A stretch of DNA of 53,936 nucleotides. Source: a virus. The DNA is taken from the IMG/VR virus record IMGVR_UViG_3300020123_000246; one strand, written 5' to 3'. Positions 2,166 through 44,653 of the stretch are shown piece by piece. The notes under the pieces are model-generated. The model was not told where the DNA came from and did no database searches. It worked only from the letters and a program-made list of their open reading frames with translations. The first letter of the stretch is position 1; every line of letters begins with the position of its first letter. The translations under genes and the position numbers were made by a program.

Positions 2166-2609
2166 TCAATTATTTAATTTCACCTTGCAGGGGCACCCAT
2201 GAGCTAAAGCGTGGCAGGATGTGCATAAGAGGATGAATCTCTTCGATTTATAATCAGTGTGATGCTTATGAAGTTTCTTAACTTTCTGTTTGCAGTTACT
2301 GCAACGCCCTGGCTTTGCCGATTCGTACTGCGGCAAAATGTACCTTTGCGCTCGCTGTCTCGAAAACCCAAACCTTTTCCCAATTTCCTGATAGGTAAGC
2401 CCCTTGTCTTTCAACTCAGTAATTTTAATCGCCAAAGAAGGATTTCGAAAACCGCGGCGCCCACCTGGCTTAAATGCTGGCATCTTCAAATTCTTGCGCA
2501 CAAACCAGATGCGCCAACTCGAGACTCCGTAATTTTTAAGAGAGGTTTGAATTTGGTAAGGCCGTTTTCCTGACTTAAGGAGATTGGCTATTTTAAAGTT
2601 TAACCACAT
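2166..2609 (-). CDS. HNH endonuclease with two N-terminal HTH-like segments (147 aa)
   Basis: CSNCKQKVKKLHKHHTDYKSKRFILLCTSCHALAH (CxxC...HH...CxxCH..H); KGLTYQEIGKRFGFSRQRAQRYI HTH; visibly AT-richer than flanks. Confidence 0.75.
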   Translation of the reverse strand: MWLNFKIANLLKSGKRPYQIQTSLKNYGVSSWRIWFVRKNLKMPAFKPGGRRGFRNPSLAIKITELKDKGLTYQEIGKRFGFSRQRAQRYILPQYESAKPGRCSNCKQKVKKLHKHHTDYKSKRFILLCTSCHALAHGCPCKVKLNN

Positions 2610-2687
2610 GGCGAGAGCCTATCTCAGAGTGTAAATGGCAACAACTTTTCCTTGTAAAAAAATGCCACCTATGCAGAAATCGGAAGA
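2610..2687. promoter_or_regulatory. Divergent intergenic region between leftward early operon and rightward terminase operon
   Basis: 78-bp AT-rich gap between divergently oriented genes 2166..2609(-) and 2688..4508(+); promoter elements not confidently assignable. Confidence 0.4.
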
Positions 2688-4508
2688 GTGGCTACCAAGA
2701 GAATCTACGGACTAGAATGGCCTGAGTCGACAGACCCCCTCGAAGTCGAGTTTTTCTTCATCAAAGCCGGCGGGTACCATAACGAAAACGGGAAGGTTTA
2801 CGGCCGCGGCAAATTCTACCACACGAAAGCCGCCATCTCCCTGATCTGGCCGGATGACGATCACCACAGATGGAGCGACCTAGCGCTAAAGCGAAAATGC
2901 GAGAACGATATCGTCGTTTACATGGGGTCGAGCGACTCTGGCAAAACCTACTTTAGCGGGCGTTACATTCTGGTCGATTATTGGGCTAGTCCGGACAATA
3001 CCCTCTGGATGGTTTCCTCCACCGAACTGCGCGGCGCCGAGCTGAGGATTTGGGGCAAACTAAAAGAGCTCTTGAACCGGGCTCGCGAGCGCTACCCCTG
3101 GCTGCCGGGCCGGGTGCTCGAGAGCAAAACCTGTATCACGACTCAGGATATCACGTTGGATGGGAGCGAAGCTCGAGTGATGACCAAAGGGATCATCTTC
3201 ATCCCCTGCAAGTCCGGCGAGAATTGGGTAGGCCTGGGAGCTTACGCCGGCATTAAGCCCACCAAAAACGGCCGCCTTCGCCACTGCGGCGATGAAGTTT
3301 CGTTCATGGAGCGCTCGTTTCTACAGGCGTACGCCAACTGGTTTGGAAAACCCAATTTCGAAGGGATTTTGAACGGCAATCCGATTGAGTTGGATGATTG
3401 CCTGTGCGTTGCGGCCGAACCGATGGGAGGATGGGAAACGTGGGAGGATTCGAAGAAAACTCAGGAATGGCGCTCAAAGTGGTATGGCGCCTTGGTGATT
3501 GCCTTTGACGGCCGGGACTCACCTAATTTCGATTTTCCAGCCAACCTGCCCCCGCGGTACGATTACCTTATCAGCCGTAAAAAGACCGATGCGGTTGCCC
3601 GGGCTGAGGGCGAGGAGTCACAGCTCTACTGGATGCAGTGTATCGGCAAGCCGCGCCCAGGTGCTGAGAAATTCAAGATCTTCACCAAACGCGATTGCGA
3701 GCTCGCCGGCGCTTTTGACGATGTTATTTGGGAAGCGGCTCCCACGCTCAAGATCGGCGCGTGCGACGCTGCCTATGGTGGCGAGGGCGGGGACCGGTGC
3801 GTGTTCGAGTACATCGAATGCGGCCGCGCGGTCGGAGGGGCCAACATCATCAAGTTTCACCCGCCGGAAATCGTCCCCATTAATACCGCTCTTGCTGAGA
3901 AACCGGATACTCAGATTGCCCGCTGGTGCAAAAGCCGGTGCGAGGGTTATGGGGTGCCGGCAAATTGCTTTGGTTTTGACGGCCGCTCGACTCTCGCACT
4001 GGCCTTTGCGGCCGTGTGGAGCGCGGAGGTAATCGTTGTCGATTTTAGTGGTCCGCCTTCGGACCGGCCAGTATCCCAGGAGCATTGGATTTACGATGCC
4101 AAAGAGAAAAAGAAGCGGCTCAAACGCTGTAACGAGCACTATTCGAAATTCGTTACCGAGCTTTGGTGGGCCATCCATTACCTCCTGCGCGGCAAGCAAA
4201 TCCGCCATCTATCGCATGAGGTTGCCGATGAGGGCAGCAAACGGATCTGGTACCCAACCAAGGGCGAGCCGATCAAAATCGAGATCGAGAGCAAGCCCGA
4301 GATGAAAAAGCGGGTGCAGCGCTCGCCGGACTTGACGGATGCTCATGTTACCGGCATCGAAGTAGCCCGCCGGCATGGATTTACGATCGACAATATCAAA
4401 GACGCCAGCCTCGTAGAGAAAGAAGATGACTGGCTCAAAGATCAACAGGACCTCCACCGTAGGCGCATGCAAAAGCATGAGCTGAAGTACCGAAATAACT
4501 GGATATGA
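2688..4508 (+). CDS. terL: Terminase large subunit (606 aa, GTG start)
   Basis: Walker A GSSDSGKT, Walker B-like LRHCGDEVSFME, RNaseH-like nuclease motif GACDAAYGGEGGDRCVF; size and position in the packaging/head operon. Confidence 0.85.
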   Translation: MATKRIYGLEWPESTDPLEVEFFFIKAGGYHNENGKVYGRGKFYHTKAAISLIWPDDDHHRWSDLALKRKCENDIVVYMGSSDSGKTYFSGRYILVDYWASPDNTLWMVSSTELRGAELRIWGKLKELLNRARERYPWLPGRVLESKTCITTQDITLDGSEARVMTKGIIFIPCKSGENWVGLGAYAGIKPTKNGRLRHCGDEVSFMERSFLQAYANWFGKPNFEGILNGNPIELDDCLCVAAEPMGGWETWEDSKKTQEWRSKWYGALVIAFDGRDSPNFDFPANLPPRYDYLISRKKTDAVARAEGEESQLYWMQCIGKPRPGAEKFKIFTKRDCELAGAFDDVIWEAAPTLKIGACDAAYGGEGGDRCVFEYIECGRAVGGANIIKFHPPEIVPINTALAEKPDTQIARWCKSRCEGYGVPANCFGFDGRSTLALAFAAVWSAEVIVVDFSGPPSDRPVSQEHWIYDAKEKKKRLKRCNEHYSKFVTELWWAIHYLLRGKQIRHLSHEVADEGSKRIWYPTKGEPIKIEIESKPEMKKRVQRSPDLTDAHVTGIEVARRHGFTIDNIKDASLVEKEDDWLKDQQDLHRRRMQKHELKYRNNWI

Positions 4509-4984
4509 TTACCGAGAGAACTGGCCCGTCTATCAATAAAGGCAGAAGCCGCCAAGACTACGAAACCCCTGTCGATTTTATGCGTGCAGTGGCCGCAAGG
4601 TTTGGCGCACCGGTGCTGGATTTAGCGGCAAGTGATTCGAATGCCAAAGCGCCGATGTGGATTACTGAGGCGCAAGACTCGCTAAAAGTCGCATGGCACG
4701 ATGAAGTCTCAGGTGTGCTTTGGCTCAACCCTCCTTACGGCATTATCGGGCCTTGGGCCAAAAAGTGTTGGGAGGAAAAACAAGAGGGCGCTCGGATTCT
4801 GATGCTCGTACCTGCCAGCGTTGGCTCAAACTGGTTCAAAGACTACGTGCACAATCGGGCACTGGTTTGCTTCCTTTCTCCTCGTATCACGTTCGAGGGA
4901 GCTGATGACCCCTATCCCAAAGACCTTATGCTTTGCTGCTACAATTTTGGAGTAGCCGGTTACGAGTGCTGGCGATGGAAGTGA
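4505..4984 (+). CDS. Phage-type DNA N6-adenine methyltransferase (Dam_N6A family)
   Basis: QDYETPVDFMRAV...LDLAAS..NAK...VLWLNPPYG...ILMLVPAS..SNWF matches the phage N-6-adenine-methyltransferase family; ATGA overlap with terL. Confidence 0.88.
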   Translation: MITERTGPSINKGRSRQDYETPVDFMRAVAARFGAPVLDLAASDSNAKAPMWITEAQDSLKVAWHDEVSGVLWLNPPYGIIGPWAKKCWEEKQEGARILMLVPASVGSNWFKDYVHNRALVCFLSPRITFEGADDPYPKDLMLCCYNFGVAGYECWRWK

Positions 4985-4992
4985 GGCTGCCC

Positions 4993-5676
4993 ATGCAAGT
5001 CTCTATCGCCTGCAAACAGTGCGGGGCTCAGGTAGATTTTGAGCCGGACTCGCCGATACTCAAAATGGCCAATGATTACGGCACGTTCTGCGATGCCTGC
5101 ATGGCCACTCAGACCGCCTCGCCAGTCGAGCCGCATGTTCCCCGGATAATTCTCTACGCTACTATCTGCCCGCCCTGTTTCGAAGATACGCGGATCGCCC
5201 GATTGCCCTGCCAGGCCAAGAGCGAGCAAGCTATCAACTGGCACTACGGGCCCGATGGGCTCAACCTTTGGGGCGAGCCCGGTACCGGAAAGACTCGGAC
5301 CATGGGGATTCTCCTGCAGGGCCTCTTACAGCGCGGTTACAAAGTGGTTGCGTTTGGGCCAGGGGATTTCCGCCGGTTATGCGAGTCCAAAAACCACAAG
5401 CGAGGGGTGTGGCTTGAGCGGCTCTGTCAGGTCGACGTACTTTTCTTCGATGACTTGGACAAAATGAACCTGACCGCGGAGATGGAAAAAGACCTCTTCG
5501 CGGTGCTCACTAAAAGGATGGGACGCAAACCAGTCATGATGACCGGCAACGCTACCGCCAGAGGCATCGAGTACCAATTCCGCCTCGGTGAGGCAATGGT
5601 CCGGCGAGTACGGGACCACTGCCGCTCAATCCATTTCGCAAAAACAGACATAGACAACCAACCAGTAAAACCATGA
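4993..5676 (+). CDS. DnaC/IstB-like AAA+ ATPase with N-terminal Cys motifs
   Basis: Walker A GEPGTGKT, Walker B VLFFDDLDK, sensor MMTGNA; start chosen at ATG 4993 behind GAGG (ATGs at 4933 and 4975 are alternatives). Confidence 0.75.
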   Translation: MQVSIACKQCGAQVDFEPDSPILKMANDYGTFCDACMATQTASPVEPHVPRIILYATICPPCFEDTRIARLPCQAKSEQAINWHYGPDGLNLWGEPGTGKTRTMGILLQGLLQRGYKVVAFGPGDFRRLCESKNHKRGVWLERLCQVDVLFFDDLDKMNLTAEMEKDLFAVLTKRMGRKPVMMTGNATARGIEYQFRLGEAMVRRVRDHCRSIHFAKTDIDNQPVKP

Positions 5677-6149
5677 GGAAGATTGACGTTGGCCAAGGCT
5701 ACCACGCGATAATCGATGACGACGATTTCGAGCGCGTGAGTAAGGTAAAATGGTGGCTTGTTCGCGACCCAAACAACTTCTACGCAAAAAGAAACGTCAA
5801 AATCGATGGGAAGTGGACTACCCAAACGCTTCACTCCTTTATTCTGAATGTTCCAAGGTCGACCCGCATCGACCACAAAGATCACGATGGTCTGAATAAC
5901 CAAAAGTGAAACCTCAGACCTGCTACACAGTCTCAGAACTGCCAAAACCGAATTCGCACTGGCAACCGGTATGGACACAAAGGCGTCTTTCTCGACCCTC
6001 GGCACACACGTCCTTTCGGTGCCAGGATAAGTGCGGGCAGAAAGCGGATTTTACTGGGCTACTTCAGTACGGTAGAACAAGCAGCCAAAGCTTATAACGA
6101 AAAAGCGATTGTGCTTTTTGGAAAATTCGCAAGTCTAAACGGGATATGA
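5673..6149 (+). pseudogene. HNH-AP2 homing endonuclease interrupted by one in-frame TGA (5907-5909)
   Basis: N part ...HSFILNVPRSTRIDHKDHDGLNNQK stops at TGA. The same frame continues NLRPATQSQNCQNR...GYFSTVEQAAKAYNEKAIVLFGKFASLNGI (AP2 domain) to TGA 6147-6149, which overlaps the next ATG. Confidence 0.8.
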
Positions 6150-6829
6150 ATGAACCTTTCAACAGATCACAATTTCCGCCCCAGGGGTGGCAGTTCCTTC
6201 AAGCTCAAACAGGCTGGACTAATCCAATGCCGATGGTGTTCAGTTTCGATCGCACGGTTCAGGAGATCATCAAACACCGGATGGCTAACCCGGCCATTAC
6301 CGCGCAACACCGGCTCTCGATGGATCCGACTGCTGTTGCAACCGAGCTCGAGAATTTCACGCGCGCGCGCCTGGGCATGCCATCTCTAGGAGGAGCCGGC
6401 GCCCCAAAAATGAACCCACAACAGCCCTTGCCTCAAGCTGTTGTGGGGGCCATTGAGGGGCTAAAGCGGACCGCGGCCGGCGCTGGCGCGGTGATTGAAT
6501 GGCTTGGGAGTGGCGGCCAGGCGGTAACGCCAGGACTCTCTACCAAGCGCGCTGAAATCTGCTCGACTTGCCCGCGCAACCAGCCAGGCAACCTCTCTCA
6601 GTGGTTTGTCAAAAAAGCCTCGGAGCTGATTCAGCAGGAGCTGTCGCGACGGCTGGATTTGCAGCTATCAACGGCTTTCGATGACAAGCTCGGTGTGTGT
6701 ACGGCTTGCCTGTGTCCCATGAAACTGAAAGTTCACACCCCGCTGGATATCATCGAAAAGAAGATGCTACCCCAGGTGCTCGCCGATCTTGACCCTCGTT
6801 GTTGGATTCTCAAAAAAGACGTCATTTGA
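6146..6829 (+). CDS. Hypothetical Cys-motif protein (227 aa)
   Basis: ORF track; CSTCPRN ... CTACLCP motifs; first gene of the modification island. Confidence 0.6.
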   Translation: MNEPFNRSQFPPQGWQFLQAQTGWTNPMPMVFSFDRTVQEIIKHRMANPAITAQHRLSMDPTAVATELENFTRARLGMPSLGGAGAPKMNPQQPLPQAVVGAIEGLKRTAAGAGAVIEWLGSGGQAVTPGLSTKRAEICSTCPRNQPGNLSQWFVKKASELIQQELSRRLDLQLSTAFDDKLGVCTACLCPMKLKVHTPLDIIEKKMLPQVLADLDPRCWILKKDVI

Positions 6830-7545
6830 AGATCCTCCTCTGTTATATCACAGTCACCGGCGGCGCCAAAACGCTCGAGTACGCTCACCGGTTTGCCTGC
6901 ACGTACAGCCAGCACCCCCCGGGCTATCCGCACGATCAGGTAGTGGTGTGCAATGGGGGTCGACCGGCGCCGGAAATGGAATTCATGTACGGGATCCTCA
7001 ACAATGGTGCACGAATGCTGGTGAGAGAGAACGATGGCGGTTGGGACATTTCGGCGTACATCGAAGTGGCCAGGGACCTAGGCCAAGATTACGATCTAAT
7101 GCTCTGCCTCGGAGAGTCGATTCATTTCCATCGGTTCGGCTGGCTCCTCAGGCTAGTGGAGGCCTACCGGACGCACGGACCGGGCATGTATGGAGCATTC
7201 GCCAGCAACACTGTGCGGGCCCACATCAATACCACTGGCTTTGCCATCTCCCCGAGGTTTCTGGCCGAGTGGCCAACACCGGTTACCAACCGGCAGGAGC
7301 GCTACGATTTCGAGCACGGCGAGAATTCGATTTGGCGCCGGACTCAAGCCGAGGGTTTTCCAACGATGCTCGTTACCTGGGACGGCTTCTGGCACCCTCA
7401 GGCCTGGCGGGTACCGGCAAACATTCTCTGGCGAGGCAATCAGACCAACTGCCTCATGTACTGCAGTCATACCGATAACTGGTTTGCGGCCGATAAAGAA
7501 CGGCGAGCTCGCTGGCTGCGCATGGCGGACGCTCCTTTCCGATGA
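6826..7545 (+). CDS. Glycosyltransferase-like protein, paralog 1 of 3 (RgpF-like motifs)
   Basis: Aligns by eye with 8498..9160 and 10459..11178 (VVCNGG, NDGGWDISAY, FHRFGWLLRLVEA..THGPGMYG, HINTTGF, FEHGENS, VTWDG). Probable TTG start at 6826 in a TTGA overlap, matching the paralog N-termini (track ATG at 6799). Confidence 0.65.
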   Translation: MKILLCYITVTGGAKTLEYAHRFACTYSQHPPGYPHDQVVVCNGGRPAPEMEFMYGILNNGARMLVRENDGGWDISAYIEVARDLGQDYDLMLCLGESIHFHRFGWLLRLVEAYRTHGPGMYGAFASNTVRAHINTTGFAISPRFLAEWPTPVTNRQERYDFEHGENSIWRRTQAEGFPTMLVTWDGFWHPQAWRVPANILWRGNQTNCLMYCSHTDNWFAADKERRARWLRMADAPFR

Positions 7546-8501
7546 AGTACGCAACCGTATGCAGTGGTATCGGTGCGCCTGAATGCGCCTGGCAATCTCT
7601 TGGTTGGCAGTGCCAGTTTGCCGCCGAGATTGAGCCTTTCCCTTCTACCGTTCACGCCCATCACTTCCCAGAAGTCCCCAATTATGGCGACATTACGAAA
7701 TTCAAAGAATGGCCACAGCACACAATCGATGTTCTTGTTGGAGGGACGCCATGCCAAAGCTTCTCCGTCGCAGGGCTTAGAAAAGGACTGGCTGACCCGC
7801 GTGGCAACCTCATGCTCACCTTTCTGGCCATCGTTGGCCGCTATGCTCCCGCCTGGGTCGTTTGGGAAAATGTCCCCGGCGTGCTGTCCATCGACAACGG
7901 ACGGGCTTTTGGAGCCTTCCTCGGAGGGCTGGCGCAACTCGGGTATGGGTTCGCCTACCGAGTTCTGGACGCTCAATTCTTCGGAGTGGCCCAAAGACGC
8001 CGCCGTGTGTTCGTTATCGGATGTGCTGGAGGACAATGGCAGCGTGCCGCAGCGGTTCTATTTGAGCGCGAAAGCCTGTGCGGGAATCCTGCGCCGAGCC
8101 GAGAAGCGGGGAAAAGAATTGCCCCAACACTTGAAAGTCGCGCTAATGCAGGTGGCTCAGGATGGGGGACAGATTTCCTAGCCGGTGGCGGCATGACAGC
8201 CCATAGCCTTCGCGCTGATGGATTCGACGCGAGCGAGGATGGAACGGGGCGGGGCGTGCCGCTTGTTACTGGTCCGATTGCGGGTTGCTCTAATGGTGGC
8301 GGGGCAAACGGCCCTGTGCGCCGATTAACCCCAACCGAGTGCGAAAGACTCCAAGGCTTCCCGGATGGATGGACGGCGATCCAATACCGAGGCAAACCGG
8401 CTGCTGATGGGCCGCGCTATGAGGCTCTCGGAAATTCAATGGCGGTGCCGGTGTTGCGGTGGATTGGGCAGCGCATTCAAATGGTGACAGACCTCGCATG
8501 A
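7542..8501 (+). CDS. dcm: DNA (cytosine-5)-methyltransferase
   Basis: Motif I CSGIG, IV GGTPCQSFS, VI WENVPG, VIII QRRRRVF, X GNSMAVPV. Confidence 0.95.
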   Translation: MKYATVCSGIGAPECAWQSLGWQCQFAAEIEPFPSTVHAHHFPEVPNYGDITKFKEWPQHTIDVLVGGTPCQSFSVAGLRKGLADPRGNLMLTFLAIVGRYAPAWVVWENVPGVLSIDNGRAFGAFLGGLAQLGYGFAYRVLDAQFFGVAQRRRRVFVIGCAGGQWQRAAAVLFERESLCGNPAPSREAGKRIAPTLESRANAGGSGWGTDFLAGGGMTAHSLRADGFDASEDGTGRGVPLVTGPIAGCSNGGGANGPVRRLTPTECERLQGFPDGWTAIQYRGKPAADGPRYEALGNSMAVPVLRWIGQRIQMVTDLA

Positions 8502-9160
8502 AACCCGTTTTAGTTTACGCTTACCCCGGCGAGCGCTACCTCGAGCATGCGCTCAAGTTTGTTGCCACCTACCAGAACGCGCCAGGAGGCATCGAGCACA
8601 GCACTTTGATTGTGTGCAACGGTGTGCCAGCGGACGGGTTTGCCAAAACGCTTTTCGCTTCACTCCCTGAGGTCAGCTTCCTCGAGCACGATAATTCCGG
8701 TTGGGATATCGGCGCTTTCCAGAAGGCGGCCGAAAATCTCCCGAATACGGTTGCGGTGTTTTGCGGCGCCTCGGCTTGGTTTCCGCGGCCGGGCTGGATG
8801 GTGCGAGTGGTCCAATCCGCCACACGTCGAGGCCTCGGGATTTTCGGTACCATGGGCAACGCCGGCGATGCGCGTTTCAGTGTATCCCCGCACATACGGA
8901 CTACCGGTTTTTGGCTGAGCACTGAGCTAATGAACAAGTACCCGCTCAGGGTGAAGGATGCGGGCTTGCGCTACGCCTTCGAGCATGGCCCCAACTGCCT
9001 GACGTCATGGGTCACCGGACAGGGAATGCCCGCCTGGGTAGTCACCTGGGATGGTGAGTACATGCGTGAAGCCTGGGACCACATTCCAAACGGCTTTCAC
9101 CGCGGCGACCAAAGCCAGGTCATGATCCGTGACAGACTCTGCGATCCACCCTACTACTGA
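8498..9160 (+). CDS. Glycosyltransferase-like protein, paralog 2 of 3
   Basis: IVCNGV, DNSGWDIGAF, FPRPGWMVRVVQS..RRGLGIFG, HIRTTGF, FEHGPN, VTWDG; ATGA overlap with dcm. Confidence 0.65.
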   Translation: MKPVLVYAYPGERYLEHALKFVATYQNAPGGIEHSTLIVCNGVPADGFAKTLFASLPEVSFLEHDNSGWDIGAFQKAAENLPNTVAVFCGASAWFPRPGWMVRVVQSATRRGLGIFGTMGNAGDARFSVSPHIRTTGFWLSTELMNKYPLRVKDAGLRYAFEHGPNCLTSWVTGQGMPAWVVTWDGEYMREAWDHIPNGFHRGDQSQVMIRDRLCDPPYY

Positions 9161-9161
9161 A

Positions 9162-9851
9162 ATGCGACCTATAGCCGTTTTCTACCACTGCCTTTTCTGC
9201 CTCAACACGCCGGACAATGTCCGCGAAAAAGCCCTCGCGATTGTCGACCAGCAAATGCGCGTGATGAACGCAAGCGGGCTGACCTATGCCGCCAAGGAAA
9301 TCGTTATCGGCATCAATGGCGGGGAGGAAAGCAAAATCTATGCGGACCTCCTCCTGCCTCAGAGCGCGCGCAAGGTGTACCACGGCCTCGAGAGTCACGC
9401 CGAGAACCTCACGATTGTTGAGATCGAGAAGTGGCTACCGGCTCACCCCGGCTGGAACGTGCTCTACTTCCATGCCAAAGGCTGCACGCACGCGGCGGGA
9501 GATCCTTACGGGGAAGGAGTGTCCGGCCCTTGGCGCGATACGATGACTAGCCTGTTAGTGCTCGGTTGGCGCCAGTGTGTGGCGGACCTCGGGGCGGGTT
9601 ATGAATCAGTTGGCTGCCATTTCCTTCGCGGCCAGTGCGACGGCACCCAACACATTTGGGCAGGCAACTTCTTTTGGGCTACCTCGGATTTCCTCCGGAC
9701 CCTGCCGAGCATCTACGCTCGAGAGCGAATCAAAGTGTCCGGCATTGCCGCGGCCGAGAGCCGTTATGAAGCCGAGGTTTGGATCGGCAATGGGCATCGG
9801 TGTCCAACAGTCCGCGAGTACCTGCCTGCCGGCGGGGGAGGAGTCCCATGA
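9162..9851 (+). CDS. Putative glycosyltransferase-related protein (HxKG...WR motif)
   Basis: IAVFYHCLF..., VLYFHAKGCTHAAGDPYGEGVSGPWRDTM recalls the HTKK...WR motif of rhamnan-synthesis (RgpF)-type transferases; assignment from memory only. Confidence 0.45.
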   Translation: MRPIAVFYHCLFCLNTPDNVREKALAIVDQQMRVMNASGLTYAAKEIVIGINGGEESKIYADLLLPQSARKVYHGLESHAENLTIVEIEKWLPAHPGWNVLYFHAKGCTHAAGDPYGEGVSGPWRDTMTSLLVLGWRQCVADLGAGYESVGCHFLRGQCDGTQHIWAGNFFWATSDFLRTLPSIYARERIKVSGIAAAESRYEAEVWIGNGHRCPTVREYLPAGGGGVP

Positions 9852-10462
9852 ACGAAGTGTTATTGCTGGATGAAATTGCGCTAAAGCACGGTACCGACAA
9901 GGCCTCGAGGCATCCCGTCAAAGGCCATGGTTACACAGCCCATTACGCCGATGTGTTCTGGCCGTTTCGCGACGAGCCTCTAAGCGTGGTTGAAATCGGA
10001 GTCGGAGGCGGCGAGTCGATCCGCATGTGGCTCGAGTACTTTCCGAGAGCTCTTGTTTACGGAGTGGATAACGTGCAAGGTACCAACCCCTGGAACACAG
10101 TGAGGGGCGGCGCGGATCTCCGCTACACCTTTGTTTACGGCGACCAAAGCGACACGACTTTTTGGGAGTGCTTCAAGGTCGATTACGGGCCCACCTTCGA
10201 CATTATAATTGATGATGGCGGTCACTTCTCCAACCAGATCGTTACGACCTTTGCCGGCATGTGGGGCACGATTAAGCCCGGCGGCTTTTATTGCATTGAG
10301 GATATCGATTGCGGGTACACCGCAGGGACGATATTTATTCCGCCCGGCTCTCCGAGCCACAACGATTTTGTGACGGGATTTGTGCCGTCGATCCAAACTG
10401 GCGGTAGTGATATCGATTACCTCCGGATCTCAAACGGCCTGGCCATCTTCCGAAAGCGATGA
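9848..10462 (+). CDS. Class I SAM-dependent methyltransferase (sugar O-methyltransferase-like)
   Basis: KHGTDK...HGYTAHYADVF...VVEIGVGGGESIRMWLEYFP...VYGVD...IIIDDGGH pattern typical of polysaccharide-cluster methyltransferases; ATGA overlap. Confidence 0.75.
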   Translation: MNEVLLLDEIALKHGTDKASRHPVKGHGYTAHYADVFWPFRDEPLSVVEIGVGGGESIRMWLEYFPRALVYGVDNVQGTNPWNTVRGGADLRYTFVYGDQSDTTFWECFKVDYGPTFDIIIDDGGHFSNQIVTTFAGMWGTIKPGGFYCIEDIDCGYTAGTIFIPPGSPSHNDFVTGFVPSIQTGGSDIDYLRISNGLAIFRKR

Positions 10463-11178
10463 GAGTTGCCCTCTGCTATCCCTACATTTACAGCAAAGAA
10501 GAGGAGCTTCTGCCAACGATCGAGCGATTCTTCGATAGCGGGATTGACTATCCTCCCGGTGCTGACCACGACTTAGTTCTGGAATTGAGTGAAGCGCCCT
10601 TGCGGGTTTGGTCTATTTGGGATGGAGATGGCTTGCGCGCGCCAAACGTAAAGATCGTTCGCTACTATGGAGGAGGCCGGGATATCGGAGCTCACCAGCA
10701 CGCCGCCAACTCGCTTGCTCCTGAGATTGACTTTGCTGTATTCTGCAGCTCTCAGGTTCATTTCCATCGCGCCGGCTGGTTAGCCCGAATTATTGAAGCG
10801 CGCACTAAGCATGGGCCCGGTTTGTACGGCGCGATGGGTTCTTTCGAAAATAATCCCCACATCCGGACCTGCTTCTTTGGGTGCGATCCTCTCTTCATGC
10901 GGAGGTATCCGAATGTTATCAACAGCCGGGAAAAGTCCCTCGAGTTTGAGAGCGGACCTCAAAACTTTAGCTTGTGGGTCGATGCCCAGGGCGGCTCAGT
11001 CCGCATGGTTACATGGAGCACAGAGTTACAGCTCCAGCATTGCCGGGACGTTGAAAACGGATTCCGCATTGGCGACCAAAGCAACTGTCTTGTGTGGGAT
11101 CGCCACACCGAGATTTACGCCAAAGCGGATCCGGAGCTGCAGGCTGGATTGCGCCGCTCAGCCGATGGCCTAAAATGA
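10459..11178 (+). CDS. Glycosyltransferase-like protein, paralog 3 of 3
   Basis: GGGRDIGAHQ, FHRAGWLARIIEARTKHGPGLYG, HIRTCFF, FESGPQN, VTWS; ATGA overlap. Confidence 0.65.
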   Translation: MRVALCYPYIYSKEEELLPTIERFFDSGIDYPPGADHDLVLELSEAPLRVWSIWDGDGLRAPNVKIVRYYGGGRDIGAHQHAANSLAPEIDFAVFCSSQVHFHRAGWLARIIEARTKHGPGLYGAMGSFENNPHIRTCFFGCDPLFMRRYPNVINSREKSLEFESGPQNFSLWVDAQGGSVRMVTWSTELQLQHCRDVENGFRIGDQSNCLVWDRHTEIYAKADPELQAGLRRSADGLK

Positions 11179-11315
11179 GTGTTGAACTGAGAGGTGTCAG
11201 AGGTTTTCTGATCGGGGTGGCGTTCACCCGCAAAACCAAACTCACTCCTCGCGCCTGTTTTATTTACCTCGGCTTCTGGCTACTACTAATGATGAGCACT
11301 GAGGCCAAAGGATGA
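11175..11315 (+). CDS. Small membrane protein (46 aa)
   Basis: MSVELRGVRGFLIGVAF...CFIYLGFWLLLMM; ATGA overlaps at both ends keep it translationally coupled in the island. Confidence 0.45.
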   Translation: MSVELRGVRGFLIGVAFTRKTKLTPRACFIYLGFWLLLMMSTEAKG

Positions 11316-11998
11316 GCTGGCATAGCCAATTTTCCGAGGACCGCTGGCTCGCAGAAAACCGAGAGCTCCCCGCCAAAGGCTATTTCGTTGAGGTTGGCGC
11401 TTACGATGGGATTTCCTGCAGCAATACTCTGGCCTTTGAAGAGATGGGATGGGAGGGCATGTGTTTCGAACCGGATCCGGAGATTGCCGAGCTCTGCCGC
11501 AAGAACCGCAAGGCGATGACCTACCAGACCGCGATCGGTGGAGGCGGTTACATGCAGCCTTTTTGGGTCAATGACGCCGATAGAGGGACCTCGAGCCTTA
11601 TCAAATACCCCAATACTCGAGACTACGGTGTTACGGTCAATCCACTCTGGAAATTCCTCGACCTCTGGCGGCCGCCGAGTTTCGATTTGCTCTCAATCGA
11701 CACTGAGGGAACCGAGCTCGAGGTGTGGTCAACTCGCGGGCCTTGGAACCCTACTTATGCGATCGTTGAGTTCTGGACTCAGCCGCAACCCCCGCGGTTC
11801 GAGAGCATCGTAGCGCGCTTTGAGGTTGACGGTTACCGCCTAATCCATCAAACCGAGGCAAATGCGATCTTCCAGATCGATCCAAAACCAGAACCAGAAC
11901 CATCATGTATAAGCCACACGTACGTTGCAGGGCATGTGGATACGGCCCTGTACCCAGTCCCGGCGGAACAAAATGCGGAACCTCCTCCGAAAGATTGA
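11312..11998 (+). CDS. FkbM-family SAM methyltransferase
   Basis: SQFSEDRWL...GYFVEVGAYDGISCSNTLAFEEMGWEGMCFEPDP is the characteristic FkbM-type N-terminal pattern. Confidence 0.8.
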   Translation: MSWHSQFSEDRWLAENRELPAKGYFVEVGAYDGISCSNTLAFEEMGWEGMCFEPDPEIAELCRKNRKAMTYQTAIGGGGYMQPFWVNDADRGTSSLIKYPNTRDYGVTVNPLWKFLDLWRPPSFDLLSIDTEGTELEVWSTRGPWNPTYAIVEFWTQPQPPRFESIVARFEVDGYRLIHQTEANAIFQIDPKPEPEPSCISHTYVAGHVDTALYPVPAEQNAEPPPKD

Positions 11999-13185
11999 TC
12001 CCGGTCTTTGACCTGGGACTGCAGCCTCTGGCCAACGATTTCTGCGCCGAAGAGGAAGAGCGCGCCGGCTTTGCACCGTTAAAGGTTTTGCTCTGCCCGA
12101 ACTGCCATCTGGCTCAGCTTTCGGTCACCGTCGATCCTACTATTCTCTACCGCCGGTACCTTTACGTCACCAGCACCAGCAAAACGATGCTGGACCATTT
12201 CCAGTATCTTTGGGAGCTACTACCTATCAATGAGCCAGTGCCCCGAGTACTCGAGATTGGCAGCAACGATGGGCTATTCCTTGAATTTATCAAACATCAG
12301 GGCTGCGAAGTAGTAGGGGTGGATCCCTCCTTAAATCTGTCGAAAATCTCAGGCGAGCGCGGGGTTTGCACTTACAACGGATTTTGGAATCAGGCCTTTG
12401 CTGAGGCTAACCCGGGGATTAGGCATTTTGAGCCGGATTTCATTTTCGCCCGGCATGTGTTCTGCCATGTCGACGATTGGCGCGATTTCATCGCCGGCAT
12501 CGAACTCGTAAGCACGGTCGAAACTCTCACCTGTATCGAAGTCCCTTATGTTGGCGACCTCCTCGAAAAGGGAGAATTCGACACTATCTATCATGAGCAC
12601 ACTTCCTACCTCAGCGTAAAATCGATAGCCAAACTCCTCGAGGGAACAAAGCTCAGGCTGCATCGGATTGAGAAGCTGGCGATTCACGGCGGGGCCCTGC
12701 TCGTTATGATCCGCCACAAAGACTCGAAAGATGCGCCGCACAAGAGCGTTTCTGAATACTTCCGCAATGAGAACGTGGGGCTCGAGGCTTGGCGGGACTT
12801 TGCTGTTAGATGCCAGGGCAAGATAGAAGCGCTCCGATCTGTTGTCCGCAAGGCCAAGAGCGAAGGCAAGAGGGTAGTCGGTTACGGCGCCTCGGCCAAG
12901 AGTACCGTTTGGTTGAACGCCTGTGGGTTCACCCGAAAAGAGATCGACTACATCACAGATAACACCATGGGAAAGCTGTACAAGCTCAGCCCGGGCAACG
13001 ATATCCCGATCGTGAATTCGGACAATCTGCACTACGATCAGCCGGACTTCGCGATCATGTTTTGCTGGAATTTCGCCGAGGAGGTCATTGCCAAAGAGAA
13101 GATTTTCCTTGAGAAAGGCGGCAAATGGGTGATACCTCACCCAAATATCAAAGTAATCGATGGGAGCGGTGAAGTGGTCCTGTGA
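11905..13185 (+). CDS. NDP-sugar C-methyltransferase-like enzyme (Zn-ribbon + class I MTase + C-methyltransferase C-terminal domain)
   Basis: CRACGYG...FDLGLQPLANDF...LCPNCHLAQL...YRRYLYVTSTSKTMLDHF...VLEIGSNDG; overlaps the previous gene by 94 nt. Confidence 0.82.
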   Translation: MYKPHVRCRACGYGPVPSPGGTKCGTSSERLIPVFDLGLQPLANDFCAEEEERAGFAPLKVLLCPNCHLAQLSVTVDPTILYRRYLYVTSTSKTMLDHFQYLWELLPINEPVPRVLEIGSNDGLFLEFIKHQGCEVVGVDPSLNLSKISGERGVCTYNGFWNQAFAEANPGIRHFEPDFIFARHVFCHVDDWRDFIAGIELVSTVETLTCIEVPYVGDLLEKGEFDTIYHEHTSYLSVKSIAKLLEGTKLRLHRIEKLAIHGGALLVMIRHKDSKDAPHKSVSEYFRNENVGLEAWRDFAVRCQGKIEALRSVVRKAKSEGKRVVGYGASAKSTVWLNACGFTRKEIDYITDNTMGKLYKLSPGNDIPIVNSDNLHYDQPDFAIMFCWNFAEEVIAKEKIFLEKGGKWVIPHPNIKVIDGSGEVVL

Positions 13186-15485
13186 AATTTAGCAAGGTCA
13201 ACTTGGTCGAACAGGTGGTATGGAATATGCGCCTGGCCGACCTGCCACGCGCGGAAAACCGGACCATTATTAACGAGCTCTTCAACGGAGATCCCCCTTT
13301 CGATGAGGATACGGCCGAGGAAGATCAGATCCAGATCAACCGCAACGACCTGACCGGCCCAAACGTGATGACCCAATCCCGCCGGCAGTGGATGCAGGCC
13401 CTCGTCACCAAACCGGGAAACAAATTCTCAGTCGCGCTCGACAGCGGCCCGGCCAAGAAACGCCGGGAGTGGAGCCATGCCATTACCCGCAATGCCAATC
13501 GGGTGCTCAATCGTTCACGCTCCTACATGGAGCAAGGCCGAGCAGCCGGCGCCCAAACGGTGTTGCATGGCATAGGTCCCTCCATCTGGACAACTCGCCG
13601 CGGAGTGCTCTGCAAGCCCTTGCCGATCGGAAGTGTGATGATTCCGAGCGAAACGGACGTCGATTTCGAGAACCTCGACCATATTGCGTTTTTCAACGAG
13701 TGGACCCCGGCGCAGCTCTCCAAACTGGTTTACGGCAACCGGCGGGATCCAGGCTGGAACCTCGAGCTCGTCAAAGCTCAGTGGAAGTACGTAGTAGAGC
13801 AGGTTCAGAAGCAGCCCAATGCCACGGCTTTCCAGTACATGCCTGAGCGCATTGAGGAGCTGATCAAGCAGGACATGGGCTTTTGGGGTTCTGACGCCGT
13901 GCCTACCATTGACGTTTGGGACTTCTATTTCCGCCAGGACGATAACGGTTGGTACCGCCGGGTGTTCCTCGATTGGGGAGTAGAGGCGGGAGTCAAAGAC
14001 CTACCCAAATCCAAGAATGGTGATAAAAACGATCTGTTTGGAGGATTCCTCTACACCAGCGGCAAGCGGATTTTCGCGCGGGACATTAACGAGTTTTTCC
14101 ATTCCCAACTCGGCGATTGCTCGGCTGTTGCCCCATTCAAGGTTCATTCGATTCGATCGCTCGGCTGGATGCTTTGGGGAGTGTGCGACCTCGAGACTCG
14201 GTTGCACTGCAAATTCAGCGAGGCTCTCTTCGAGCAACTCATGTGGTTTTTCCGGGTAGCCAGCGGAGGCGACCTTACCCGCCTGCGCAAAGCGGACTTC
14301 TACCATTTTGGCGTGATTCCCTCGAACGTGGACATGGTAAAGGGCAATGAGCGCTACGTTCCAGACGCCAACCTGATCAACGCCGGCTTTACCCGGTTCA
14401 ATCAGTTAATCAGCCAGGCGGCCTCTTCCTTCACTCAGGACTTTTCCGGCGGCGAGAGCGGTAAGGAAATGACCGCTACCGAAACGATGGCCCGGGTCAA
14501 TCAGGTCAATGCTCTGGTGTCCGGCTTGCTCACGCTGGCTTACACGTACGAGGAATTCAAAGACCGTGAAACGATGCGCCGGCTATGCATCAAAAATAAT
14601 CCGGATCCACTGGCCAAAAAGTTCTACCTGATGTGCATGGAGGATAAGGTTGATCCCGAAGTACTCGACGTCGACAAAATGGATATTGTCCGCGAGCGCT
14701 CGATGGGTGGGGGAAACAAAACCCTCGAGATGGCCATGGTTCAGTTCCTGCAGGGCATTCGAAAGAACCTGGGCCCGCAAGGGCAACGCCAAGTCGATCA
14801 TATTTCCATTGAATCGGTTACCGATGACGCGCGCCTGGCCGAGGACCTGGCCCCGGTCGAGCAGGAAAAGCACGTTTCCAATTCCGAGCACGATGCGCAG
14901 CTCGCTACCGATCGCATACTCCGCGGCCTTCCTTTCCAAGTGCGGCCGGACATGGTTTTCGAGGATTATGTCAAAGTGTGGCTGCAGGATCTCACGGTGC
15001 TTGTCACGCAGAAGCAGCAAGCCGGCGGGATGGCTACACTGGACGAAATCAAAGGGTTCCAGGCCCTGAGCAATCAGATTACCGAATTCCTCAAGATCAT
15101 GGGGACGGATCCGGAGCTCAAGGAACGGGTTCGCGAGTACCAGCTCGCTCTAACCAAGCTGCTCAATCTGGTGAAAGCGATGTTCCAGCGGCTCATGCAG
15201 CAAATGAAAGCTCAGGCTCGAGCAGGCGGCAACGGCGAACAAGCCAAAGAAGCGGCGAAGATCCGCGCTATAGAGCTCGCGGCTCAGGTCAAAGCGAAGA
15301 ACTCAACCGAAAGCAACGCGCAAAAGAACGCGCAGCGGCAAGTCAGCTTCGAGTTGAAAGAGCAACAGCAGGAGCGGGAGCACCAAGCCACCATGCGGAG
15401 GCTCGACCTCGAGCATCATTACAACCTTTTGACCGATGCCTTACGGGCAGCCGGCCAAAGTGACAGCAAACCAGAAAACCAGTAA
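13182..15485 (+). CDS. Putative portal protein (767 aa) with coiled-coil C-terminal tail
   Basis: Size, position between the terminase region and scaffold/capsid genes, long Q/K/A/E-rich helical C-terminus; no motif-level proof. Confidence 0.6.
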   Translation: MKFSKVNLVEQVVWNMRLADLPRAENRTIINELFNGDPPFDEDTAEEDQIQINRNDLTGPNVMTQSRRQWMQALVTKPGNKFSVALDSGPAKKRREWSHAITRNANRVLNRSRSYMEQGRAAGAQTVLHGIGPSIWTTRRGVLCKPLPIGSVMIPSETDVDFENLDHIAFFNEWTPAQLSKLVYGNRRDPGWNLELVKAQWKYVVEQVQKQPNATAFQYMPERIEELIKQDMGFWGSDAVPTIDVWDFYFRQDDNGWYRRVFLDWGVEAGVKDLPKSKNGDKNDLFGGFLYTSGKRIFARDINEFFHSQLGDCSAVAPFKVHSIRSLGWMLWGVCDLETRLHCKFSEALFEQLMWFFRVASGGDLTRLRKADFYHFGVIPSNVDMVKGNERYVPDANLINAGFTRFNQLISQAASSFTQDFSGGESGKEMTATETMARVNQVNALVSGLLTLAYTYEEFKDRETMRRLCIKNNPDPLAKKFYLMCMEDKVDPEVLDVDKMDIVRERSMGGGNKTLEMAMVQFLQGIRKNLGPQGQRQVDHISIESVTDDARLAEDLAPVEQEKHVSNSEHDAQLATDRILRGLPFQVRPDMVFEDYVKVWLQDLTVLVTQKQQAGGMATLDEIKGFQALSNQITEFLKIMGTDPELKERVREYQLALTKLLNLVKAMFQRLMQQMKAQARAGGNGEQAKEAAKIRAIELAAQVKAKNSTESNAQKNAQRQVSFELKEQQQEREHQATMRRLDLEHHYNLLTDALRAAGQSDSKPENQ

Positions 15486-15490: not shown

Positions 15491-16060
15491 ATGCTAGCAA
15501 TCCAAATTGAACAGATCCCGAATAATGAGCAACGCTACCCAACCGTAGGAGATTGGTACTTTACCCAGGTTACGCCGGCAGGCGAAGCAAACCTGCCTCC
15601 CAATGCCCCGCTCAAGACACTGATTTCCTCGCCGGACACTCTAGTCATTCTTCACATCAAGGTATCAGCATTGCCCGACTGGAAACACACGATGCTCATT
15701 GCCGTGCATGAGCTGGTCGAGGTCCTGCTCTGCATCAATGACGGAGTGACCCAGGACATGGTTGATCGGTTCGATATCCAGTACGAGGAGCTGCGCAAGG
15801 CTGGCGATGAGTCCGAGCCTGGCGATGCGGTTTTGGCCCCCTATCGCAACCAGCATTGCTACGCTACAGCCGTCGAACGCATGCTGTGCGCGGCCTTTGG
15901 ATTACCGTGGGCTGAGTATGAAATCGAAATCGGTTCTCTCTACGAGGCAGAAGTCGCATCCGGCCGAAACAAAGAGGCGCCGGAAACCTGCAACTCCTGT
16001 GACAGCGATCCGGGGTATCCAATGCCGGCGGTAGATCTTGAGCCGCCAAAGGCAGCTTGA
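15491..16060 (+). CDS. Hypothetical protein (189 aa), contains AVHELVEV
   Basis: ORF track; in-operon. Confidence 0.55.
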   Translation: MLAIQIEQIPNNEQRYPTVGDWYFTQVTPAGEANLPPNAPLKTLISSPDTLVILHIKVSALPDWKHTMLIAVHELVEVLLCINDGVTQDMVDRFDIQYEELRKAGDESEPGDAVLAPYRNQHCYATAVERMLCAAFGLPWAEYEIEIGSLYEAEVASGRNKEAPETCNSCDSDPGYPMPAVDLEPPKAA

Positions 16061-17370
16061 AAGAGCTCTCGGAAATAACTTGCGGATTTATCGATCATGG
16101 CGGGCTGTATCAGCCCCTTGCTGAGCGCCTCGCCGAGTCGTACAAGCGGGTTATTTACTACGATCCAAACGCCGAGGACAGCGAAACGGTCAATGACGCT
16201 GTTCTCGGTGACTCCTTCCCTCCTAACCCTCGATTTGAGCGGGATGATGATATCTGGATGCGCAAAAAGGAGCTCGACCTTGTTGTAATCCCTGATTCCA
16301 AGCATTGCGGTATGGCGCTGGAGCTGCGCTCCCAGGGTATTCCAGTTTGGGGTTCAGCCCGGTCCATCTTCCTCGAGCAATCGCGCGAAACCTTTGTTCG
16401 AGTGCTCGAGGAGTTGGGCTTGGAAGTGCCGCCCTACAAGCGAATCATCGGAATTGACCGGCTGCGCGAGTACCTCAAAGACAAAGAGGATCAGATCATC
16501 AAAATCTCGAAGCACCGGCGGACCATGGAAACCAAGAAATGGACCTCCATGGATGAAGATGAGGCCTGGCTCGACATGATGGCTGTGCGCCTGGGCGGGG
16601 TTAAGAACCTGCAGCCTTTCCTTGCGTTTGAGTCCATCGATACGCCGCTGGAGCTCGGATTTGATACCTACCACATTGGCGGCCGCTATCCTCGGCTCAT
16701 GCTCGACGGGTACGAGGCCAAAGACAACGGGTACCTGGCCGCGCTCAAGCCCTTTGAGGAGATGCCCGAACAGTCGCGCGCCGTGCTCGAGGCCTTTGCG
16801 CCACTGCTCAAGCAGGCCGGGCATGCCAATTTCTGGACGTTTGAAATCCGGGTCAAAGACGACCATTTCTACCCGATAGACAACACCCCTCGAGGTCCGA
16901 TGCCTGGGACTGGCAGCCAAGGGATGCTCTACAAGAATCTGCCGAAGATAATCGCCGCCGGCGCCGAGGGTGAATTGATCGAGCCTGAGGCCGCCGGCAA
17001 ATTCGCCGCGGAGGTAGGTCTCTGCAAAAAAGGGTTCGATGTGTCCTGGCGCAGTGTGCGCGTCCCTGAGGAGCTCAAGCCATGGATGAAGCTTTCCGGT
17101 ACCTGCAACGTAAACGGCCGCTCTTGGTTCCCTTACAAGCCCCATGATGACGAGGGCATTGGCTGGCTGGTAGCGATCGGGGATACGCCGGCCGAGATCA
17201 TCGATAATATCCTCACCTACAAAGAACTCCTGCCCCCTGGCGTCGAGTGCTCAACTGAGGCTATGATTGAATTGCTCAGAGAGATCCACAAAGCTGAGGA
17301 GCAGGGGATCGAGTTTACGGATGAAGTGGTACCAGAACCCGAAACAGTAGTTACCCAAGATGAAAGCTAA
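16057..17370 (+). CDS. ATP-grasp fold ligase-like enzyme (437 aa, TTG start)
   Basis: PurD-like layout: GIPVWGSARSIFLEQSRETF...LGLEVPPY; Lys strand QIIKISKHRR; LAFESIDTPLELGFD; FWTFEIRVKDDHFYPIDNTPRGPMPG (the E-x-N-x-R equivalent). Confidence 0.6.
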   Translation: MKELSEITCGFIDHGGLYQPLAERLAESYKRVIYYDPNAEDSETVNDAVLGDSFPPNPRFERDDDIWMRKKELDLVVIPDSKHCGMALELRSQGIPVWGSARSIFLEQSRETFVRVLEELGLEVPPYKRIIGIDRLREYLKDKEDQIIKISKHRRTMETKKWTSMDEDEAWLDMMAVRLGGVKNLQPFLAFESIDTPLELGFDTYHIGGRYPRLMLDGYEAKDNGYLAALKPFEEMPEQSRAVLEAFAPLLKQAGHANFWTFEIRVKDDHFYPIDNTPRGPMPGTGSQGMLYKNLPKIIAAGAEGELIEPEAAGKFAAEVGLCKKGFDVSWRSVRVPEELKPWMKLSGTCNVNGRSWFPYKPHDDEGIGWLVAIGDTPAEIIDNILTYKELLPPGVECSTEAMIELLREIHKAEEQGIEFTDEVVPEPETVVTQDES

Positions 17371-20313: not shown

Positions 20314-20335
20314 GTCGATTAGGGAATTGAGGTCA

Positions 20336-44460: not shown

Positions 44461-44481
44461 TTTGGTTTGGTTTGGTGTTTG

Positions 44482-44652: not shown

Positions 44653-44653
44653 A

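Follow-up and report, generated by a model that had tools for sequence, protein, structure and literature searches.

Gene content of the island

We analysed a 53,936-nt stretch of viral DNA (IMG/VR record IMGVR_UViG_3300020123_000246), referred to here as the window, with a focus on an island of genes at positions 6146–13185 that lies between a putative large terminase gene (TerL) and a putative portal gene. An initial annotation of the sequence had described ten coupled genes in this island, and all ten open reading frames (ORFs) are present on the plus strand at the coordinates listed here. Gene starts were placed at the start codon nearest the upstream stop.

6146–6829, plus strand: ORF1, a basic protein of 227 amino acids with a cysteine cluster
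6826–7545, plus strand: PAR1, the first of three paralogues, with a predicted glycosyltransferase A (GT-A)-like fold
7542–8501, plus strand: C5-MT, a C5 cytosine DNA methyltransferase (PF00145)
8498–9160, plus strand: PAR2, the second paralogue
9162–9851, plus strand: DUF8361 protein, whose homologues carry PF27674
9848–10462, plus strand: MT24, a class I S-adenosylmethionine (SAM) methyltransferase of the Methyltransf_24 type
10459–11178, plus strand: PAR3, the third paralogue
11175–11315, plus strand: 46-amino-acid ORF, a hydrophobic basic peptide
11312–11998, plus strand: FkbM methyltransferase (PF05050)
11905 (or 11995)–13185, plus strand: C-MT, a homologue of nucleoside diphosphate (NDP)-hexose 3-C-methyltransferases

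Seven of the nine internal junctions have 4-nt overlaps of the ATGA, GTGA or TTGA type, and eight of the nine show or allow a 4-nt overlap of start and stop codons. The PAR2/DUF8361 junction is a gap of +1 nt, while the FkbM/C-MT junction is a 4-nt overlap if C-MT starts at TTG 11995 and a 94-nt overlap if it starts at ATG 11905. This coupling is not specific to the island. It runs from TerL (2688) onward, through the island and into the putative portal gene (13182); a 48-nt gap separates the island from the small ORFs upstream of it and coupling otherwise resumes. The first strong plus-strand terminator is located at 20335–20366 (a 14-bp stem and a T-run) and is the only one between 2 and 20.6 kb. 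The island had been thought to fill the space between terminase and portal, however Dam, an IstB/DnaC-like ATPase and two small ORFs occupy positions 4505–6097.

The island is conserved in a clade of uncultivated phages

Related loci were gathered from public assemblies (nine loci) and from IMG/VR (39 loci) and mapped with purpose-built hidden Markov models (HMMs); individual loci are referred to below by L numbers. Homologues of the PAR proteins, the DUF8361 protein and ORF1 are numerous and nearly all metagenomic. Approximately 27 distinct viral loci share the order (TerL)-ORF1-PAR1-PAR2-DUF8361-[variable]-(MT24/FkbM/PAR3)-(C-MT)-portal-like-g437-g443, where g437 and g443 are genes downstream of the putative portal gene. 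The synteny check among related metagenomic phages that the initial annotation had proposed thus returned a conserved gene order, which extends across a clade of uncultivated phages of roughly 50–60 kb. The island is a two-part, clade-wide cassette, with a core (ORF1-PAR1-PAR2-DUF8361) and a methyl-sugar module (MT24-PAR3-FkbM-C-MT).

The variable part contains genes for carbohydrate enzymes in different relatives, among them radical SAM, TylF, MT24, GT2, GT9, GT34 and DUF5672 proteins, an RmlD-type reductase and a transaldolase. A radical SAM gene forms a cluster in nine loci, where it comes directly after the DUF8361 gene. The variable part of relatives also holds Mom, Endo VII and homing HNH genes, which shows that DNA-modification genes repeatedly land in this island. 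In L002 (14827–15797), a Mom-family gene (1e-24) and an Endonuclease VII gene are located between PAR3 and FkbM.

The window's own C5-MT is a clear C5 DNA methyltransferase (PF00145, 5e-54; TIGR00675, 1e-53; phrog_116, 9e-86), and it is embedded in the island as first described. It is not a conserved part of it: within the islands of relatives it occurs only in L015–17 (one phage, at a different position) and in L036, and it is absent from the other islands. On this distribution of homologous sequences, we regard C5-MT as an inserted passenger and not as part of the island core.

A sugar C-methyltransferase homologue and two further SAM enzymes

The last gene of the island had been annotated as similar to NDP-sugar C-methyltransferases, and the homology to MtmC, KijD1 and TcaB9 is full-length. 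C-MT contains three domains that all exceed their curated cutoffs (PF08421, 1e-12; PF13489, 2e-16; PF08484, 2e-39), in the arrangement of an N-terminal zinc domain, a Rossmann domain for SAM binding and a C-terminal domain for the sugar nucleotide. Residues 32–418 align with MtmC (PDB 4rv9; E 3e-73), including an identical FDTIYHEH block which, from the TcaB9 literature, we take to contain catalytic residues. KijD1 (E 4e-60) and TcaB9 (E 3e-54) also match. By homology, C-MT is an NDP-hexose 3-C-methyltransferase homologue of the TcaB9/MtmC/KijD1 type. When translated from ATG 11905 it has four cysteines (C8/C11 and C64/C67), and a start at TTG 11995 would drop the first pair, cutting into the zinc domain. 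The two genes may overlap in different frames at positions 11905–11998, where the 3' end of FkbM encodes a PEPEP tail of low complexity and the 5' end of C-MT encodes the CxxC residues of the zinc site.

Beside C-MT, the island encodes two further SAM enzymes, of the MT24 and FkbM types. MT24 had been annotated as a sugar-type SAM methyltransferase and does match the Methyltransf_24 profile (PF13578, 1.3e-6; phrog_21658, 1e-25). The FkbM protein matches PF05050 (2.4e-11; 44.5 bits against a cutoff of 22.7) and also TIGR01444 (1.3e-8), with a bit score (35.4) slightly below the cutoff of 37.7.

Three paralogues with a GT-A-like fold

PAR1, PAR2 and PAR3 are 32–33% identical to one another over ~230 amino acids and each matches the family HMM at E ≤ 1e-80, a level of sequence similarity at which their paralogy is not due to chance. 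No match was found for any of the three in Pfam, NCBIfam or PHROGs at E ≤ 0.1, nor among PDB sequences or GenBank phages. An AlphaFold (AF2) model of PAR1, built from an alignment with 41 homologues, has a predicted local distance difference test (pLDDT) score of 95.5. Foldseek searches of this model against the PDB returned GT6 (ABO), GfsA, GlfT2 and glycogenin (E ~1e-6, probability 1.0, template modelling (TM) scores of 0.36–0.54), and the matches include GT6, GT8, GT31-type and GlfT2 structures. The matches in BFVD are viral GT2-like and "rhamnan synthesis F-like" proteins with TM-scores of up to 0.63; proteins of giant viruses annotated as "rhamnan synthesis F(-like)" match at E-values of 2e-7 to 5e-7 (TMq 0.52–0.63). 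At the DxD site that follows beta-4 (strand 91–95), the three paralogues have GES, GAS and SSQ, with no conserved acidic pair. We are confident from the model that the PAR proteins have a GT-A-like fold; they form an unclassified family that lacks DxD. This agrees with the paralogy and the glycosyltransferase (GT)-like character proposed in the initial annotation, although without DxD they are not canonical GTs.

The paralogues correspond by position to those of relatives. PAR1 is 45–60% identical to first-position PAR genes and PAR2 is 41–61% identical to second-position PAR genes, whereas PAR1 and PAR2 are 33% identical to each other. PAR3 is 52–63% identical to third-position PAR genes in L002 and L015. 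These identities indicate that PAR1, PAR2 and PAR3 are ancient positional orthologue groups. PAR3 is the paralogue nearest to the cellular PAR domain, and PAR3-like genes adjoin FkbM, MT24 or C-MT genes in other viral lineages (L043, L044 and L047). An exhaustive profile search identified 1725 PAR-domain clusters (at 50% identity). Many of them are multidomain, with fusions to GT2, GT9, GT1-type, DUF5672, methyltransferase and TPR domains.

A DUF8361 protein with a nucleotide-sugar-transferase-type fold

The fifth gene had been annotated as RgpF-like. However, no island protein matches PF05045 at E ≤ 0.1, and the gene encodes a DUF8361 protein. It has 709 homologues, mostly with precomputed PF27674 assignments, and homologues that are 53–78% identical to it carry this domain. 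Our own Pfam scan of the window protein gave no PF27674 match at E ≤ 0.1, perhaps since the local copy is without this model. The AF2 model (pLDDT 94.3) has a nucleotide-diphospho-sugar-transferase-type fold, which puts it in one fold superfamily with PAR1, and its Foldseek matches in the PDB are IspD, KdsB, GlmU and CMP-sugar synthetases, followed by GpgS (E 6e-7 to 1e-4, TM 0.4–0.48). H104-A-K106 (H-x-K) stands at the position of the GT-A DxD. The sequence has no glycine-rich nucleotidyltransferase loop of the GxGxR type. A shared RYExE block is suggestive of a relationship between the DUF8361 and PAR proteins, however hhalign gave a probability of 0.5% and we do not claim homology.

The only useful GenBank-phage matches of our sequence searches were DUF8361 homologues in a cyanophage and a megaphage. 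In cyanophage S-SRM01, the homologue is surrounded by genes for GTs, an epimerase and a sulfotransferase. In the 735-kb megaphage LR756501 (L011), DUF8361 is fused to a Fringe-like GT and adjoins two C-MTs, a radical SAM/SPASM enzyme and several GT2s.

The megaphage locus as a whole (LR756501.1, 317368–337958, reverse complement) is a glycan cluster of more than 15 kb. It contains three GT2 genes, the Fringe-like-DUF8361 fusion, two C-methyltransferases and the radical SAM/SPASM enzyme, together with a 1122-amino-acid protein with GT47, nucleotide-sugar-transferase and GT25 domains.

ORF1 and the 46-amino-acid peptide

ORF1 (227 amino acids, isoelectric point (pI) 9.1) consists of an N-terminal domain that is conserved, a Pro/Ala-rich linker that varies and, towards the C-terminus, a cluster of six invariant cysteines (C139, C142, C185, C188, C190 and C219). 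It has no match in Pfam, PHROGs, NCBIfam or the PDB. Its 83 homologues are all metagenomic, with none detectable outside this phage group, and no other element of the locus is as well conserved. Wherever both were recovered, ORF1 is upstream of the first PAR gene, mostly directly so, even where TerL is located elsewhere (L004, L007, L032 and L033). ORF1 is also present in the distant relatives L008 and L009, which have neither PAR nor DUF8361 genes; there it is followed by a different protein of 264/307 amino acids that looks GT-A-like from its strand-helix repeats and a "LWLEPD" motif. We considered ORF1 as a small terminase or an HNH nuclease and rejected both, as it stays with PAR and not with TerL in rearranged genomes and has no invariant histidine.

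The 46-amino-acid ORF has 4-nt overlaps at both ends, a grand average of hydropathy (GRAVY) of +0.57 and a hydrophobic stretch at its C-terminus. A homologue of the peptide (E 1e-7) is found in L015/L016 (19729–19959), after the portal gene and g189. This sequence conservation indicates that it is a real gene which is not bound to the island; its behaviour is that of a small, mobile head-region gene.

An acidobacterial operon is predicted to encode the corresponding pathway

Acidobacteriota genomes encode a protein in which a PAR domain is fused to GT2 and TPR domains. We annotated the operon in one locus (L054), on the 5.4-Mb chromosome OY969555.1 (4819206–4837386; operon at L054 positions 2413–10187). 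The gene order is NTP-transferase, NDP-sugar 4,6-dehydratase, C-MT, RmlC-like 3,5-epimerase, SDR reductase, Methyltransf_24 and, last, PAR-GT2-TPR. The acidobacterial C-MT, located between the 4,6-dehydratase and the RmlC-like epimerase, has the same three domains as the phage C-MT. Phage and acidobacterial proteins are 38–40% identical for PAR3 (over the full domain, which is the N-terminal domain of the fusion) and 31–35% identical for both MT24 and C-MT. The PAR/MT24/C-MT trio recurs in two further acidobacterial loci (L052 and L053), and in three Acidobacteriota genomes the PAR-GT2-TPR gene is directly preceded by the MT24 gene.

From its gene content, the L054 operon is predicted to be a complete pathway for NDP-3-C-methyl-6-deoxyhexose. 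In this context, the phage C-MT is predicted to act on NDP-4-keto-6-deoxyhexose, and by analogy the island resembles a shortened version of a 3-C-methyl-6-deoxyhexose pathway, which would rely on NDP-sugars from the host. The combination of the acidobacterial operon, the megaphage cluster and the adjacency of these genes in viral lineages is the strongest evidence for an island that would handle a 3-C-methyl, O-methyl 6-deoxyhexose, with PAR as the transferase. No nucleotide-sugar synthase was detectable in the window, which may be explained if the host provides the NDP-4-keto sugar. The initial annotation had already listed this absence along with that of a hydroxymethylase, and Pfam scans of the window ORFs found neither enzyme, nor TET.

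The host is probably a species of Acidobacteriota, as suggested by the cellular operon; this is consistent with one PAR homologue in a Terracidiphilus metagenome-assembled genome (MAG) and with a G+C content of 55–60%. A conserved-peptide pattern scan of 185,579 species genomes for the PAR family found only two short MAG contigs, and genome scans with DUF8361 and with the multi-GT fusion P0371 found none. The acidobacterial link surfaced only when the fusion protein P0422 was used as the query.

Possible acceptors of the proposed glycan

The island is most likely a phage-borne, late-expressed cassette for glycan tailoring and transfer. The initial annotation had described it as an island for glycan building and sugar methylation, and the GT-A-like folds and the homology of C-MT support that description. 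In the explanation that fits best, a nucleotidyltransferase and a 4,6-dehydratase of the host would supply NDP-4-keto-6-deoxyhexose, to which the phage C-MT would add a 3-C-methyl branch, and MT24 and FkbM would O-methylate the sugar. PAR3, whose cellular relatives are in an operon with these enzymes, would transfer the methylated deoxyhexose, while PAR1, PAR2 and DUF8361, always paired with the putative zinc protein ORF1, may build or prime the underlying glycan. The acceptor would be a macromolecule synthesised in the cytoplasm during the same period. A structural protein of the virion is the most likely candidate, and the particle would then be decorated with glycans, as in the mycobacteriophages Corndog and Che8. 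Virion proteins are our best guess for the acceptor, by analogy with Corndog. We consider the chances that the island glycosylates the virion, with this explanation taken as a whole, to be evenly balanced. In its favour, the genes are translationally coupled with the packaging and head genes, and a scan for internal promoters found none that was convincing, with fewer promoter-like sites than in shuffled sequence. Pfam scans of the window ORFs detected no integrase family, which argues against a temperate lifestyle.

Several points weigh against virion glycosylation. The same TerL-portal stretch carries Dam, C5-MT and a DnaC-like ATPase, and Mom, Endo VII and HNH genes in relatives; because DNA-metabolism genes share this stretch, placement in the late operon is not specific for a virion target. 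The promoter scan was based on a sigma-70 consensus that may not suit this host. The PAR and DUF8361 proteins lack DxD and fall outside every characterised GT family, their Foldseek TM-scores are modest (0.36–0.63) and the top structural matches of DUF8361 are nucleotidyltransferases rather than GTs, so that we infer transferase activity for both from modelled fold, fusions and context. No 4-ketoreductase or 3,5-epimerase is recognisable in the window. Finally, the PAR profile has no detectable homology to the Corndog GTs gp36, gp37 and gp38 (hhalign probability ≤ 0.5%).

Remodelling of a host-envelope glycan is the strongest alternative, although we consider it unlikely. The enzymes would act on a host polysaccharide, a lipid-linked glycan or a surface-protein glycan, and this may mask or change a receptor (leading to superinfection exclusion or protecting progeny from debris) or may keep host glycan synthesis running; the host glycan may already hold a 3-C-methyl sugar. 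Peripheral soluble GTs are able to act on lipid-linked intermediates, the nearest cellular relatives of PAR3, MT24 and C-MT form an acidobacterial chromosomal sugar operon, as is typical of host-derived auxiliary genes, and the S-SRM01 homologue of DUF8361 is among genes that are usually read as surface-glycan genes. However, lysogenic conversion is unlikely given that no integrase and no integrated copy was found (only the two short MAG contigs among the 185,579 species genomes). Furthermore, no flippase, polymerase, GtrA/B-like protein or membrane component was found except for the 46-amino-acid peptide. The genes are coupled to late packaging genes and are not an independently expressed moron, and a fixed ORF1-PAR-DUF8361 core upstream of the portal would be unusual for auxiliary metabolic genes.

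We regard it as improbable that the island serves sugar hypermodification of DNA after replication. In this scheme, the GT-A-like enzymes would add sugar to a base (perhaps one that originates from C5-methylcytosine) prior to or during packaging, with ORF1 as a DNA-binding partner. This would suit the presence of C5-MT in this island (and, at different positions, in those of two other lineages, L015–17 and L036), of Dam in the same stretch together with Mom, Endo VII and HNH in relatives, and of an ORF1 that is basic with a cysteine cluster. A GT9 heptosyltransferase is present in one relative's island, and phage GT-A and GT-B enzymes encoded near the terminase are reported to put hexose, N-acetylhexosamine (HexNAc) and heptose on 5-hydroxymethylcytosine (5hmC) (bioRxiv 10.1101/2023.12.21.572611). 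However, Pfam scans of ORFs across the 53.9-kb window detected no 5mYOX/TET enzyme and no ThyA-type hydroxymethylase, although a very divergent enzyme is possible, and C5-MT is missing from most islands. The PAR and DUF8361 proteins have no R...DDD...EDY/F motifs in invariant alignment columns and are neutral to acidic (pI 5.8–7.1), and the cellular counterpart of the island is a standard deoxysugar pathway that ends in a GT2-TPR protein.

It is very doubtful that PAR and DUF8361 are not GTs at all and act instead as nucleotidyltransferases, phosphotransferases or enzymes that bind or hydrolyse sugar nucleotides, with a free sugar nucleotide or small molecule as the island's product. The missing DxD, the lack of GT family membership and the fact that DUF8361 is structurally most similar to cytidylyltransferases (IspD, KdsB and CMP-sugar synthetases) are consistent with this, however there is no GxGxR-type nucleotide-binding loop, the best PAR matches are GTs, fusions to bona fide GT domains occur repeatedly and four transferase-fold proteins in a fixed order suggest stepwise assembly. 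Least probable of all is that ORF1 guides the DxD-less GT-A-like enzymes to DNA at packaging, placing C- and O-methylated deoxyhexoses on DNA without a TET/ThyA-type hydroxymethyl intermediate, which, if true, would be a new class of DNA hypermodification across a soil phage clade.

Flanking genes and other features of the window

The island is flanked by the following two genes:

2688–4508, plus strand: putative large terminase (TerL), matching phrog_2 (E 7e-4), with a GSSDSGKT Walker A motif in the translation
13182–15485, plus strand: putative portal protein of 767 amino acids, assigned from its size and conserved position

The terminase proposed as a flank in the initial annotation is weakly supported by the PHROG match and the Walker A motif, and searches of the PDB and of GenBank phages with TerL gave no match. 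The proposed portal has no match in Pfam, PHROGs, the PDB or GenBank phages. TerL homologues are upstream of ORF1 in most related loci, and homologues of the putative portal gene follow the island in approximately 30 loci. In L008 (7218–10004) the TerL homologue has 928 amino acids, compared with ~600 elsewhere, and a weak Hint_2 match; it is probably an intein-containing terminase.

Downstream of the putative portal gene, g437 (16057–17370, plus strand; 437 amino acids) is conserved directly after the portal in many relatives. Its PDB matches are non-significant (E 0.24–0.65), with ATP-grasp proteins at the top (the biotin carboxylase (BC) domain of pyruvate carboxylase and PurP); it is a possible ATP-grasp ligase within the head module. 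The g443 protein (18278–19609, plus strand; 443 amino acids) has an Ala/Pro-rich N-terminus, long charged helices and a GRAVY of −0.83, and resembles a scaffolding protein more than a capsid protein. An ORF of 521 amino acids (20574–22139, plus strand), just 3' of the terminator at 20335–20366 and conserved in relatives, is probably the major capsid protein. We considered the Ser/Thr-rich C-terminal domain (~60 amino acids) of this putative capsid protein as an acceptor and set it aside as uninformative, since the capsid genes compared were all from island-bearing relatives and only some of these have it: L019 and L035 have the ~60-amino-acid Ser/Thr-rich C-terminus, and L045 and L050 have a Pro-rich tail instead.

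Recombination and replication genes that are unusual for a phage are located at 43234–46545 (minus strand), 884–1462 (minus strand) and 47030–48466 (plus strand). They encode a Mgm101/Rad52-like annealing protein (1e-16), a PD-(D/E)XK nuclease, a Pol-beta-thumb nucleotidyltransferase and a DUF3560 protein. A Cpn10/GroES-like co-chaperonin (4.9e-11) is among the 44 window ORFs scanned, and in the relatives L004 (7788–8237) and L007 (8779–9069) a Cpn10/GroES-like gene lies on the opposite strand, a short distance upstream of the island. Pfam scans of the called window ORFs returned no DNA polymerase, integrase or tRNA, and an ORF of 2078 amino acids (32870–39106, plus strand) has no Pfam or PHROG match.

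Comparison with known systems

Phage DNA hypermodification clusters combine C5-MT and 5mYOX/TET, or ThyS, with GT-A enzymes that have DDD and EDY/F motifs (Pyle et al., bioRxiv 2023.12.21.572611). The island differs from these in that it has no detectable 5mYOX/ThyS and no DDD or EDY/F, and in that C5-MT is not conserved with it.

Chloroviruses and giant viruses resemble the island in encoding their own cytoplasmic GT-A-type enzymes and sugar methyltransferases, and their capsid sugars are methylated. However, they are eukaryotic viruses with their own nucleotide-sugar synthesis, and they have no sequence-level relationship to the island.

Among characterised enzymes, C-MT is closest to MtmC, TcaB9 and KijD1, with the same three-domain architecture, a full-length alignment and the YHEH block. 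It is about one third identical to this type by eye, and differs in being phage-encoded without a neighbouring dehydratase, epimerase or reductase. The acidobacterial operon in L054 likewise clusters the C-MT, MT24 and PAR families (31–40% identity), but it is cellular, includes the nucleotide-sugar synthesis steps, has PAR fused to GT2 and TPR and has no ORF1, DUF8361 or FkbM gene.

Whatever the acceptor, this analysis defines two sizeable transferase-fold families that lack DxD, the PAR domain (1725 clusters) and DUF8361. It also connects the PAR domain, through its operon context and its fusions, with a predicted complete pathway for 3-C-methyl-6-deoxyhexose in cells. The enzyme-substrate hypotheses are now concrete and can be tested in vitro without cultivation of the phage. 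If virion glycosylation is correct, glycan-coated virions would extend beyond actinobacteriophages and giant viruses, as a conserved trait of a large clade of uncultivated soil phages that probably infect Acidobacteriota. The coat would use deoxysugars that are 3-C-methyl-branched and O-methylated; elsewhere, such sugars are known chiefly from antibiotic pathways and from rare glycans of bacteria.

The closest parallel among phages is the mycobacteriophage Corndog. The initial annotation held that the island resembles no described phage system, however Corndog has a methyltransferase and three tandem GTs in its head operon. We compared the gp32–gp41 map, in which gp35 (methyltransferase) and gp36–38 (GTs) are on the same strand inside the packaging/head block. 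This is a cassette of the virion glycosylation kind, for which Che8 and Myrna are further examples. The Corndog GTs are reported to glycosylate the capsid and the tail tube (PMC11600133; PMC12363180, citing Freeman et al. 2023). The Corndog cassette follows gp34 and precedes the major head protein gene, whereas the island precedes the putative portal gene, and MT24 has only a weak SAM-motif match to gp35. Compared with Corndog, the island adds a sugar C-methyltransferase, FkbM, DUF8361 and the putative zinc protein ORF1. The probable host phylum also differs.

Our literature searches turned up no branched-sugar methyltransferase in phage glycosylation systems, and we know of none in any that has been studied. 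We rate the island as belonging with phage-encoded glycosylation cassettes, to which it adds uncharacterised transferase-fold families and a branched-sugar methyltransferase.

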